10,599 bases of DNA, taken from IMG/VR virus record IMGVR_UViG_2713896787_000001. The stretch is one strand, 5' to 3'. Position 1 is the stretch's first letter. Every line of letters begins with the position of its first letter. The stretch comes from a virus (lineage: Duplodnaviria; Heunggongvirae; Uroviricota; Caudoviricetes). Made by a program: the position numbers. This document shows, in pieces, positions 6,001 through 9,000 of the stretch.

Positions 6001-9000
6001 CTCGCAGCTGAATCCAGCCAGAATCCAAACTCAATATCCAGCGCATCAAAAAGCCAGAGCGGCGTTTGCCAGCAGTCCTTGTCGTGTGCTGGCGTATTTG
6101 ATTTGATAGTCATGCAGCCTTCCCTTTTCGTTGTGACCATTCATACTCTCGCCGGGAGTCATCACTCCACCGCACGTTGCGCTCTGAGCCGAACCAGAAC
6201 ATGATTTCGATAAGCTCAGTCATGCTGGCCTTTCGCATTTTGCTGGTACGCACGCCAAGCATGACAACGCCACCGTCGATACCAGGCGCACTTCTTTGCT
6301 CCAGTTTTTTGGTCTTAAGCCACAGGGCAGTGAACAGGTCTTTCCAGTCTTCCGGCGCCAGCCGTTGACCATGCCATAGCACCTGACGCGAAACATCGTT
6401 CAGCATCGGCCACATGCGGTCATTCTGCGCTTTGCTGCGCTTGGGTTCTTTAACGTGGACTTCGTGGGGTGACTTGTCGTCGATGGGTAGTGAGAGAATG
6501 GCGTCTATGGCGTTATTTCTGATTGCTTCGTTGCGAAGCAGAAAGGTTTGCTTCATCTCCTGCTCTCCGGTTCCATTTTTCAGTAGCCGCAGCAACTGAT
6601 GGTGCCCATGCCACCCTGGCTTCACAGAGGTCACATTCTGCATAGCCCCACACATCAATATTTATTCCGGCCTCAACCCACAGACGAGCATTACCGCCGC
6701 AAAACGGACATTCTTTTAGCTTTGGCTGGGTTAATGATAGGTCGCTCATGCTCACTCCTTCACTTAAAATCCAGACTCCGGATAATTCTGTTGCGCTGAA
6801 ACTCATTGTTGAGTTTGAACAACCGTCGAAGAACACGGTCACGCGGATAGCGTCGTGCGGCAGGTGAATGCTCATACAACTCATCAAGCGGCAAACTGGA
6901 CGATGAACGATACCGATACCAACGCACCAACTCTTCACGAAAATTAGCCCTGACAAGCTCAGCTATCGTACTCATTTCTTAAAACCTCCTCAAACGCATT
7001 CTGACGCATTTTTCATTCTCGCTGCTTATCGGTATACCTTGCACGTGCTTACCTCACCACAGAGCGATTGTGATGCCTTAAAAGCGATTTATTGAAGTGA
7101 TATTTGCTTAATCGAAATTCTTTTCTTTGATTCCTGCGGCCCTGATGGCTTTCATTACTGCAATTACCGTTTTGTCACGCCCATCCTCATAACCCATCGC
7201 ATAAGCACCTTCTTCACCATCTTTCCAAAGGTCGTCATTCGATTCGGGCCAGTCGATATCCAGTTCAATAGCAGAGCGCGATGCCTGCCATATCACCCAG
7301 GCAAACTCTTTTAATTCATCGTCTCCCGTGAACTGGCTTTTGTCTTTTGACCACCAGTTTTCAAACTGTCGGTAGCTATCGTTCACTTCCCTCTCCCCCA
7401 AATAAAAAGGCCTGCGATTACAGCAGGCCTGTTATTAACTCAGTGATGTAGATGGTCATTGCTTCATCTCCCTTTCCATTTCATCAATGTCAACGTCATC
7501 AGGAAGATGGGAGCAATACGCCGCTATACCATGATGATTTATCTCATACCCTTTGAACGTTACCATCTGGCGCGTAATCTCAACTTCGTTCAGGAATCCG
7601 CCATCGCATAACTGCCTGGCTATTTTCGATTTGGTCTGGATTATTGGTAGTGCCTGTTCTTTCAAAGCGTATGATATTTGCGCATCCCATGCCTTTTCGA
7701 GAATGGCTAATTGTTTTTTATTCATCAGAATCCTCCTTTCTTCTTGGACTGCGGTTCCTCGCGTTCACGTCGGCGCATTTCAGCAGACTGTTGGTCTGTG
7801 TCATAAATAGCGCCATTTGCCTGAATGCAATACACCGTGCCGGTATTGCCATGACGATTGAGACGAAGGATTAGTTCGGTTTCACCAGGTGGAACACTGT
7901 CATCAAAAGCACCTTCACGATGGATCCCCACCCAATAATCGCAATCCTGTTCAATCTGCCCTGTATCTCGTGAGTCACTTGGTAATGGGCGTTTATTGGT
8001 TCGGCTTTCCAGTGCGCGGTTAAGTTGCGTCAGAAGCACAACAACGCAATCAAGCTCTTTGGCAAGGTTCTTCAGTCCTTTGGTGATCATGCCGTAAGCA
8101 AGGTCGTTGCGATCGGCCTTCTCAGCGGTCATTAGTGTCAGGTAATCGACCAGAATCATGCCAACACATCCTTTTTCTCGCTTGATTCGACGGCTTTCGC
8201 TGACGATTTGAGCCAGAGATAATCCCGGCGTGTCGTCGATGTAAAGCATGTCGATTTCACTCAAGCGATTGGCTGTTTCGATCGCCCTGTTGAAGTCACC
8301 ATCGTAATCACCCTGATAGCCGTCATCGGCGTCATTTGTCGCCGGAAGGTAAAAAATATTCGGGTTAACACCAGACTTCTGCCCTACCAGTTTTTCCAGT
8401 ATCTGATCACCTGGCATTTCAAGGCTGAACATCAGAGCGGGCTTTTTCTCATGCACTGCGCAATTGATTGCCATCTGGCTGTATAGCGTCGTTTTCCCCA
8501 TCTTAGGGCGAGCGCCAATGACAAACAGAGAGCCTTTCACCAGACCTTTCGGTGACAGCATCCTGTCCAGCGATGGGATCCCTGTGCTCATTCCCCGTTG
8601 TTCGCCTGATGGGTCAAATCGCTTCTCAAGGTCGCTAACCCAGTCTTCCATGACCTCGCCAAATGAGCGAAGGCCGCGACGCGATCCGGTTTTTGCATGG
8701 TCTGTCAGTTGCGTGAAAATCGCCTGAATAGCTTCGTACTTCTGCGTCGCAGTCATTCCGTTGCGGGAATAGAGCAATTCCGTCGCTTCAGTCATGCGGT
8801 TGATGGCGTAGCGTTCCATTGCGGTTTCGCGAACCTGCATTGCATAGGCAACGATGTTTGCGGCGCTCGGCGTGTTCTTTGCGATCTCAGCGATATAAGC
8901 AAAACCGCCAACAGACGCCGTTAACGATTTACGCTCCAGTTCATCGAAAAGCGTCAGGCCATCTACTGGCTTTTGCTCCCGGTGCATTCTGGTTATTTCT

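Follow-up and report, generated by a model that had tools for sequence, protein, structure and literature searches.

A PF26207 family protein with two variable cassettes encoded directly behind a tR2-type terminator in a Stx1-converting lambdoid phage

The window analysed here is the whole 10,599-nucleotide stretch of a Caudoviricetes genome (IMG/VR record IMGVR_UViG_2713896787_000001). The genes follow one another on one strand in the order cII-O-P-orf89-tR2-target-...-NinB-Dam-...-Q-stx1AB. In the window, the tR2-type terminator is followed by the target gene, a DUF7301 gene, a Lar-like gene and NinB. The target is a genuine protein-coding accessory gene of a Stx1-converting lambdoid phage. 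The interval 7108-7430, which a first-pass annotation had assigned to one small protein, does hold a real gene; more precisely, it consists of the gene at 7386-7108 and the terminator at 7430-7400. Rfam and tRNA scans revealed no RNA gene in this interval. The features of the locus are the following.

7400-7430, minus strand: lambda tR2-type intrinsic terminator (stem-loop 7430-7408, T-run 7407-7400)
7387-7399, minus strand: ribosome-binding region GGGGGAGAGGGAA, immediately 3′ of the T-run
7108-7386, minus strand: coding sequence of 92 codons, GTG start at 7386, TAA stop at 7110-7108; member of PF26207 / phrog_343
7100-7113, minus strand: vestigial ninB start, GATTAAGCAAATAT compared with GATGAAGCAAATAT in mEp213, overlapping the stop codon of the target gene
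6749-6513, minus strand: Lar-like gene, matching Pfam PF14354 Lar_restr_allev (E = 8.6e-09)

All annotated phage records use the GTG at 7386, which yields a gene of 279 nt and a protein of 92 aa. In an ORF listing the gene spans 7401-7108 on the minus strand and encodes 97 aa from a TTG codon. This TTG start at 7401 was rejected, as it sits in the T-run of the terminator without a ribosome-binding site or Shine-Dalgarno sequence; a GGAG/GAGG sequence is present at -10 to -4 before the GTG. The composition computed for the 92-aa product bears out the description of an acidic, Trp-rich protein: its pI is 4.40, with 21 Asp and Glu against 12 Lys and Arg (net charge -9), and it contains six Trp (6.5%). 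None of the other minus-strand ORFs in a comparison of 19 has so low a pI or so high a Trp content. The net charge equals that of a 483-aa helicase, so that per residue the target is the most acidic of the set. More than half of the acidic residues (12 of 21) fall within residues 41-71. At least three of the six Trp (W11, W30 and W33) occupy scaffold positions conserved in the family and make up no special feature, which is neutral or unfavourable for a DNA-mimic or anti-defence function.

The terminator reads AGGCCTGC-TGTAATC-GCAGGCCT, then TTTTTATTT, from 7430 to 7400 on the minus strand. Its 8-bp stem contains 6 GC pairs, where zero matches are expected by chance, and the 49-nt stretch that includes it has a fold energy of -15.6 kcal/mol. 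Apart from a 1-nt deletion in the loop, it matches the sequence annotated in the Sf6 record as 'terminator, homology to phage lambda; tR2', and terminator and flanks are nearly base-for-base equal to the Sf6 boundary sequence bsq6. The loop deletion spares the stem and shortens the 25-27-codon 'NinA' mini-ORF to 13 codons. The terminator belongs to a conserved lambdoid 'boundary sequence', and the ribosome-binding region is likewise common to whatever gene comes after tR2 in Sf6, mEp213 and L006. In 47 of 50 close loci a tR2-type terminator precedes the gene at a distance of under 80 nt. The target is indeed the first nin-region gene directly behind this terminator (7430-7400), as had been proposed from the sequence, its start codon at 7386 standing 14 nt past the T-run. 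No promoter-like site was found in this 14-nt gap, which leaves no room for one, and only transcripts reading through the terminator can therefore express the gene. Read-through transcription at tR2 in lambdoid phages is N-antiterminated; by analogy with lambda, N-antitermination is the probable source of read-through here. The gene rides the early rightward transcript, presumably antiterminated, that heads towards Q and stx.

The gene was already known, as an annotated hypothetical protein equivalent to L0091 of 933W and orf29 of VT2-Sakai. These are the same gene, alike in motifs, size and position between tR2 and ninB, and the protein is 98-100% identical to the Stx-phage copies. It is present in every major Stx-converting phage (933W, VT2-Sakai and Stx1 phages). 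At the DNA level, positions 6900-7800 of the window (901 bases) are 100% identical to phages phi367 and CP-1639 and 98% identical to VT2-Sakai and Stx2 II. A scan of viral contigs by close alignment retrieved near-identical Stx-phage copies only.

The result is chiefly one of clarification, because the family that the first-pass annotation did not recognise is a catalogued one. The phrog_343 profile matches the 92-aa form with E = 4e-29 and the 97-aa form with E = 1.2e-29 (residues 3-97 of 97), and it matched all 62 diverse members scanned. Precomputed annotation assigns PF26207 ("Phage_phiTE_015") to the 100%-identical cluster P0001 and to every one of 81 homologues except six fragments of 51-60 aa. 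The Pfam copy used in our own scan does not include the PF26207 model, and that scan gave no match for the target; across the 62 members its sole match was a chance one to VPR. Both catalogue entries are without function. No family of known function was matched in Pfam, PDB, NCBIfam, PADLOC and PHROG searches, with no hit to the named families of NCBIfam or to the PADLOC defence models. No functional annotation or experiment was found in databases or literature for any family member. Nothing was found in the literature on PF26207, phiTE_015, L0091 of 933W or the motifs; gene 015 is not mentioned in the phiTE papers, and the target gene is treated neither in the phi367 paper nor in an accessory-gene screening paper.

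The family, from temperate and lytic phages of gamma-proteobacteria, numbers 458 representatives at an identity level of 50% and no fewer than 3,610 clusters at 90%. It was seen in lambdoid prophages, HK022, Sf6 (gp48), phage L (orf86) and lytic Pseudomonas phages of the genus Pakpunavirus. In many unrelated temperate and lytic phages its genes lie in early clusters of small ORFs. In lambdoid phages the gene is always found between the replication genes or tR2 and ninB. In most of these contexts ninB, or a divergent NinB-like gene, adjoins or overlaps it; intervening genes are common, examples being Sf6, phage L, S135 and the window. The vestigial ninB start at the stop codon of the target marks an ancestral direct junction between the two genes. 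A role as an anti-defence gene of plasmid leading regions was rejected: the gene is missing from such regions, and the family turned up in just 10 plasmid records, all of them phage-like or chromosomal in nature. A hairpin module shared with the neighbouring DUF551 proteins was likewise rejected, as no motif was found.

To the selection estimate, the motif and cassette architecture and the charge pattern of the second cassette, all of which are added by the present analysis, the following subdivision of the protein is basic. Three constant motifs frame two variable cassettes.

7354-7386, minus strand: constant motif 1, residues 1-11, M-x-x-S-[YR]-x-Q-F-E-x-W; start of helix 1 (from alignments and AlphaFold)
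7300-7353, minus strand: variable cassette 1, residues 12-29, WSKDKSQFTGDDELKEFA; end of helix 1, loop and start of helix 2
7261-7299, minus strand: constant motif 2, residues 30-42, W-x-I-W-Q-A-S-R-x-A-I-E-L; end of helix 2 and short strand
7153-7260, minus strand: variable cassette 2, residues 43-78, DIDWPESNDDLWKDGEEGAYAMGYEDGRDKTVIAVM; two Trp; low AlphaFold confidence up to helix 3
7111-7152, minus strand: constant motif 3, residues 79-92, K-A-I-R-A-A-G-I-K-E-K-N-F-D; net positive; end of helix 3 and short strand

Family proteins of about 80-110 aa carry an N-terminal SRxQFExW, a central WxAWQASRAAIE[IL] and a C-terminal AIRAAGIKVK motif. The target conforms to the broader forms SRxQFExW, WxxWQASRxAIE and AIRAAGIKxK, and has all of the invariant or nearly invariant residues (F8, W30, W33, Q34, S36, R37, E41, I81, R82, G85, K87 and K89). 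Sf6 gp48 and ST64T-L orf86 share the three motifs and the position between tR2 and ninB with the target, and differ from it in the sequence of cassette 1, cassette 2 or both. Motif 2 is the recombination joint that links the cassettes. The mEp213 protein is a chimera of a Sf6-type N-terminal half and a window-type C-terminal half, the S135 protein combines a window-type N-terminal half with a different C-terminal half, and Sf6 itself is an explicit chimera. In 300 sequences, 129 types of cassette 1 and 102 types of cassette 2 occur in 190 combinations. The cassette-1 type of the target is joined to 7 different cassette-2 types and its cassette-2 type to 23 different cassette-1 types, numbers that are inflated since the sample was gathered by similarity to the target protein. 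These comparisons show that the two cassettes are exchanged independently by recombination. Their replacement could also be neutral mosaicism typical of lambdoid phages.

Cassette 2 cannot be aligned between types, yet its acidity is kept in about 90% of members. It carries a net negative charge in 88-92% of them, in contrast to the positive C-terminal motif. Overall acidity is lacking in about 8% of the sampled members and in 15% of the 50%-identity representatives. An EF-hand-like calcium loop in cassette 2 was rejected on inspection, the consensus not being fitted.

The dN/dS ratios within modules are 0.146, 0.141 and 0.231, so the gene is under purifying selection (dN/dS about 0.14-0.23). 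In the three most distant pairs, dS at the conserved motifs ranges from 1.1 to 2.4. With synonymous divergence above 1, what is constrained at these motifs is the protein rather than the DNA. These values bear on whether the ORF might be spurious, with a sequence conserved merely because it links recombining segments or flanks the terminator on the 3′ side. Such a reading could draw on the start of the gene within the conserved boundary sequence and on the coincidence of the constant motifs with recombination joints. However, low dN/dS within modules, retention of the amino-acid motifs despite saturated synonymous sites, thousands of intact homologues of similar length and a good Shine-Dalgarno sequence reduce its probability to next to nothing.

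AlphaFold predicts a three-helix scaffold with moderate confidence (pLDDT 70-72 and pTM 0.44-0.55 in two models). The helices span residues 3-16, 23-39 and 70-83 and the strands residues 41-42 and 87-88. The predicted order is helix up, helix down, short strand, long connector, helix down and short strand, and the short strand of motif 3 is predicted to pair with that of motif 2. Judging from secondary-structure topology alone, the constant motifs would meet at one pole of the protein and the two cassettes would make up the other. In both models confidence is lowest for the acidic stretch (residues 43-69), where pLDDT drops under 50 at residues 51-66, and it was not raised in a second run based on a 102-sequence alignment. 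No similarity to any solved protein was found by sequence, profile or fold, PDB sequence and profile searches giving no match. The first-pass annotation had suggested structure prediction as a check for DNA-mimic charge patterning; a scaffold could be modelled, and no rigid phosphate-like charge array is predicted in either model.

The slot between P and ninB in which the gene lies houses counter-defence functions. In the window it also carries the Lar-like restriction-alleviation gene and a Dam methylase gene. In lambda-type relatives a 96-aa ORF lies between P and the slot of the target (e.g. in L099, where we take it to be Ren), and lambda Ren has an anti-Rex role. Ren and the Lar family share with the target the P-to-ninB slot, early rightward transcription and the nature of small non-essential genes, but they have no homology to it; in particular, the Pfam scan revealed no match in the target protein to PF14354, with its CPFCGG zinc-ribbon motif. 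Guilt by association is weak here, since nin gene order is conserved irrespective of function. An identical protein is found behind lambda-P, DnaB-type and Toprim-type replication modules. A tie to the replication module of the phage was thus rejected; the protein is not adapted to the replication proteins that the phage itself encodes.

The identity, family and architecture of the gene are, in our judgement, close to certain. For its function we propose, tentatively and with more doubt than assurance, a small stoichiometric binder of a polymorphic partner, which would counter bacterial defence in the early phase of lytic growth. A constant folding or docking pole would display a variable, negatively charged recognition pole, and specificity for the partner would be re-assorted through cassette swapping. 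The likeliest class of partner would be a host or prophage defence or exclusion protein with a basic or nucleic-acid-binding surface. The lack of PADLOC matches and the near absence of the family from plasmids speak against such a function. Taken as a whole, as a compromise between the layer of identity and that of function, this explanation is arguable and still short of probable. A more specific version would make PF26207 a family of combinatorial counter-defence inhibitors, each with a three-helix docking pole and two re-assorted recognition cassettes, one of them acidic and nucleic-acid-like; the Stx-phage member would then neutralise a DNA- or RNA-binding E. coli defence in lytic growth. 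Lambdoid and lytic phages might in this way retarget immunity proteins by swapping cassettes at in-frame conserved joints. We consider this version unlikely as it stands.

The acidity of the protein (pI 4.4, net charge -9, acidic residues packed in residues 41-71) and its family-wide retention in cassette 2 recall T7 Ocr, ArdA and T4 Arn, likewise small, acidic, early-expressed proteins of phages or mobile elements. As a DNA mimic of this kind, the target would fill the DNA-binding groove of a restriction enzyme or another DNA-targeting defence enzyme, a role that its anti-restriction neighbours, the Lar-like gene and Dam, would suit. No sequence or fold kinship to such mimics was found; known DNA mimics are too divergent to be detected by sequence or fold (PMC3902945), so that missing matches do not exclude the idea. 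However, at -9 over 92 residues the protein has a modest charge density, far below that of Ocr, whose 116 residues include 34 negative and 6 positive ones (PMC3439906). Moreover, the prediction for the acidic part is one of flexibility, with no rigid array, and the structural models thus give the idea no positive support. The non-acidic minority of members also argues against it, and a cassette 2 that cannot be aligned between types fits protein-specific recognition better than generic mimicry of the DNA backbone. We regard a DNA-mimic anti-restriction factor as quite unlikely.

The close linkage to ninB in most lambdoid contexts, together with the vestigial ninB start in the window, might instead mean that the protein partners the recombination mediator NinB/Orf, or SSB-interacting machinery of the host, in an accessory role; an acidic-aromatic loop would then mimic the SSB C-terminal tail. 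Several cassette-2 types do contain acidic-aromatic motifs (DIDW and DDLW; DDDYPIPD in other cassettes). However, these motifs are limited to some cassette types and are internal, unlike the free C-terminal Pro-Phe that SSB-tail recognition requires. The linkage itself loses weight because nin gene order is kept irrespective of function and other genes frequently intervene; near the PAK_P1 homologue no NinB gene is annotated, and the neighbours are all unnamed hypothetical proteins by annotation. Such a partnership appears very unlikely. A broader alternative is a small protein of host takeover or regulation with no relation to defence, acting for instance on a host enzyme, chaperone or protease, or a near-neutral linked passenger of the mosaic nin region. 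The spread of the family through early small-ORF clusters of unrelated phages would agree with it, as would the lack of any defence-related signal in NCBIfam and PADLOC, and the conserved polar residues R5, Q7, E9, Q34, S36, R37, R82, K87 and K89 could bind a conserved host factor. Purifying selection speaks against a neutral passenger, and the diversity of the cassettes is more typical of an arms-race interface than of a conserved housekeeping target. We hold this alternative to be somewhat doubtful.

If the protein is a cassette-swapping immunity inhibitor, a function would be provided for several thousand hypothetical phage proteins. This would help to explain the spread of Stx phages among defence-rich E. 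coli, and the family would offer a natural scaffold for binder engineering. If there is no defence phenotype, the gene would be one more conserved nin-region ORF. Finally, matching only PHROGs without known function, an additional N-terminal module, either a Zn-ribbon or 'WAIKHKSGR', is carried by about 10% of family members.

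The window covers, in reverse complement, the early-right and nin region of an Stx1-converting lambdoid phage, with all genes on the minus strand. Over the 901 bases around the target gene, identity is 100% with phages vB_EcoP_phi367 and CP-1639 and 98.4% with VT2-Sakai, Stx2 II and the PA series.

Features of the window
10502-10224, minus strand: cII
10050-9151, minus strand: O
9176-7725, minus strand: DnaB-like P helicase
7725-7456, minus strand: 89-aa ORF, phrog_2239
7430-7400, minus strand: terminator, after the 89-aa ORF and before the target
7386-7108, minus strand: target ORF, GTG start, 279 nt, 92 aa
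6975-6760, minus strand: DUF7301
6749-6513, minus strand: Lar-like restriction-alleviation gene, PF14354
6556-6110, minus strand: NinB
6140-5586, minus strand: Dam
2054-819, minus strand: stx1A and stx1B, beyond further nin genes

The first-pass annotation had placed the ORF first in the nin region behind a terminator, and the order 89-aa ORF, terminator, target, DUF7301, Lar-like gene, NinB bears this out. The 89-aa ORF (phrog_2239, unknown function), between the P helicase and tR2, has ATGA-type overlaps with both neighbours and lies where lambda-type relatives have a Ren-like 96-aa ORF. Four masked N runs (226-275, 499-548, 2330-2379 and 3310-3373; 50, 50, 50 and 64 bases) break ORF calls near stx1B, upstream of stx1A and within one nin-region gene.

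The target is a real gene. ORF calling on the window gave 7401-7108 with a TTG start; this TTG lies within the terminator T-run and was rejected in favour of the GTG at 7386, which is the start in every annotated phage record and is directly preceded by GGGGGAGAGGGAA. SD and GTG belong to a conserved boundary sequence that provides the translation start of any gene after tR2 in Sf6, mEp213 and E. coli prophages. The 92-aa product is acidic and Trp-rich, as had been noted, with a pI of 4.40, 21 acidic versus 12 basic residues (net charge -9) and 6 Trp (6.5%). No other of the 19 minus-strand ORFs compared is as low in pI or as rich in Trp; the much larger helicase has an equal net charge. Codon-level comparisons gave dN/dS values of 0.146 for window versus S135 (N-terminal module), 0.141 for window versus mEp213 (C-terminal module) and 0.231 for Sf6 versus mEp213. 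These values effectively exclude a spurious ORF, to which we assign next to no probability. Moreover, distant members keep the amino acids of three constant motifs despite saturated synonymous sites (dS 1.1-2.4), so conservation acts on the protein and not just on a DNA linker. The target is a translated, selected accessory gene.

The upstream stem-loop (7430-7400, minus strand) consists of an 8-bp stem, in which 6 pairs are GC, and a 7-nt loop, and is followed by the tail TTTTTATTT. It occurs once in the window, against a chance expectation of 0 matches, and the folding energy of the 49 nt around it is -15.6 kcal/mol. The Sf6 record annotates the same sequence as 'terminator; homology to phage lambda; tR2', inside 'boundary sequence bsq6', which confirms the tR2-like terminator proposed just before the ORF. 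The target is reachable only by transcripts that pass tR2. A tR2-type terminator lies less than 80 nt upstream of the family gene in 47 of the 50 close loci with enough flank; the upstream replication module and the downstream genes differ among these loci. In lambdoid phages a mini-ORF, 'NinA', overlaps tR2 (25-27 codons in PA52 and Sf6). In the window (7459-7418, minus strand) it is cut to 13 codons by a 1-nt deletion in the terminator loop (about 7419-7413; CTGTAATC versus CTGGTAATC). Since this deletion shortens NinA and leaves the stem unaffected, it suggests that the terminator rather than NinA is the selected feature.

The target is already known: 933W, VT2-Sakai and many further Stx phages have hypothetical proteins annotated with identical or near-identical sequences, and both Pfam (PF26207) and PHROGs (PHROG 343) list the family, with no function assigned. 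PHROG 343 (unknown function) matches the target with E = 1.2e-29; scans against a local Pfam copy, NCBIfam and PADLOC profiles gave no match. A large protein database contains 81 close homologues, none of them functionally named and most labelled 'hypothetical protein'; precomputed PF26207 (Phage_phiTE_015) is present on every one except six short fragments. A profile search returned 458 family representatives at 50% identity; at 90% identity the clusters number at least 3,610. By tblastn the family was found in Stx phages (933W L0091, VT2-Sakai orf29), Sf6 (gp48), mEp213, HK022, phage L / ST64T (orf86), and Salmonella, Yersinia, Klebsiella and Aeromonas phages. Lytic Pseudomonas Pakpunavirus also carry it, for example PAK_P1 gp171c, in an early cluster of small ORFs; none of these members has a functional name. 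Plasmids almost entirely lack the family: the 10 records that carry it include no conjugative leading region. Literature searches on PF26207, L0091, phiTE_015 and the motif strings found nothing, and gene 015 is not treated in the phiTE papers. Several members (P0162, P0090, P0093, P0108, P0110, P0117 and others) have N-terminal additions or duplications, in some cases a helical-hairpin module in tandem duplicate. About 10% of representatives carry an extra N-terminal CxxC...CxC zinc-ribbon, a 'WAIKHKSGR...GW' module, or both; these modules matched solely PHROGs of unknown function.

Alignments revealed three constant motifs separated by two segments, cassette 1 (residues 12-29) and cassette 2 (43-78), that are unalignable across subtypes.

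Constant motifs of the family
Motif 1, N terminus: M-x-x-S-R-x-Q-F-E-x-W
Motif 2, centre: W-x-A-W-Q-A-S-R-A-A-I-E-[IL]
Motif 3, C terminus: A-I-R-A-A-G-I-K-V-K

Two members are natural chimeras, mEp213 with a Sf6-type N half and a window-type C half, and S135 with a window-type N half and a C half of another kind; the central motif holds both crossovers. Among 300 sequences, 129 cassette-1 types and 102 cassette-2 types occur in 190 combinations. The window's cassette 2 is paired with 23 cassette-1 types and its cassette 1 with 7 cassette-2 types, both counts being inflated relative to other cassettes because the sample was gathered by similarity to the target. No prior description of two-cassette reassortment with a charge-conserved second cassette was found. 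Acidity is a family trait, with a median net charge of -6 over all sampled members and about -4 in the 50% representatives. It is centred on cassette 2, where 88-92% of members carry a net negative charge (about -0.11 per residue), and the C-terminal motif is positively charged. At least three of the six Trp residues (W11, W30 and W33) are family-conserved scaffold positions; W46 and W54 belong to the target's own cassette 2.

Two AlphaFold models, from 27 sequences (mean pLDDT 72.3, pTM 0.44) and 102 sequences (70.5 and 0.55), have confident helices at 3-16, 23-39 and 70-83. The conserved IE[IL]E and IKVK stretches pair through two short strands, 41-42 and 87-88. The connector 43-69 is of low confidence, with pLDDT below 50 at 51-66. 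Judging from topology rather than coordinates, the constant motifs should lie at one end of the bundle and both cassettes at the other.

The gene's place is constant across diverse members from E. coli, Salmonella and Cronobacter prophages, namely between the replication genes and ninB, which it often abuts or overlaps. Identical copies of one family protein (P0023) follow lambda-P, DnaB-type and Toprim-type replication modules, so the family protein is not matched to the phage's replication proteins. The target stop codon lies within GATTAAGCAAATAT. In mEp213 the junction is GATGAAGCAAATAT, which differs by one base and contains the ATG that starts ninB. The functional ninB start of the window is ATGAAGCAAAC (6556-6513, minus strand), beyond DUF7301 and the Lar-like gene, and the target stop codon has a vestigial copy of that start, ATTAAGCAAATAT (7113-7100, minus strand). 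As the two copies flank DUF7301 and the Lar-like gene, the target was once joined directly to ninB, and these two genes seem to have come in at the 5' end of ninB as one cassette, by insertion or recombination. The gene just before ninB, whichever it is, has a product ending in ...ASQRSNQK, since the 3' end of this gene and the 5' end of ninB overlap in different frames: the Lar-like gene in the window (6556-6513, minus strand), the family gene in mEp213, orf71 in S135 and orf98 in phage L (sites in relatives' loci: L004 3188-3231, L005 3412-3455, L011 3002-3045). The DUF7301 protein is small and very basic (pI 10.8, net +7). It repeatedly lies right beside the acidic family gene, downstream in the window and upstream in other prophages and phage L (L007 and L009 3784-3999; L011 2280-2486), and is missing from many other contexts; it could be a partner of the family protein or a mere slot-mate. 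In the relative L007 (189-2582) the DnaB-type helicase gene has grown to 797 aa and shows a faint LAGLIDADG match between two DnaB_C matches. This resembles an intein or a homing-endonuclease insertion; that nin region also contains dispersed HNH/AP2 genes.

The constant scaffold, cassette replacement, early expression and slot content are together best fitted by a counter-defence role, which we propose tentatively. In this reading the small protein would bind stoichiometrically, and its variable, negatively charged pole may recognise a polymorphic partner. The same slot also holds the Lar-like and Dam genes in the window and, in relatives, the 96-aa ORF that we take to be Ren. Ren is anti-Rex. 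The gene is a sensible candidate for anti-defence screening and not itself a discovery. A host-takeover or regulatory role unrelated to defence is an almost equally plausible alternative.

Strict DNA mimicry is unlikely. The target's charge is much weaker than that of Ocr, which has 34 negative and 6 positive residues over 116 (PMC3439906), compared to 21 acidic and 12 basic over 92. Its acidic part is predicted to be flexible, and unalignable cassettes suggest protein-specific recognition rather than generic backbone imitation. The DNA-like charge patterning for which structure prediction had been advised found no positive support; the acidic residues fall where the model has no confident fold. 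However, DNA mimics diverge too far for similarity detection (PMC3902945), so the lack of matches does not exclude mimicry. The adjacency to ninB and the acidic-aromatic motifs would accord with a role related to NinB or SSB, but other genes can be interposed, the PAK_P1 homologue has no annotated NinB gene next to it and the motifs are internal, which makes this role improbable.

Finally, Rfam gathering-level matches on the minus strand comprise a C4 antisense RNA (5185-5268), isrK (5294-5370) and a c4 a1b1 target (5331-5383) upstream of an antirepressor-like gene, and STnc100 (570-740) downstream of stx1B.
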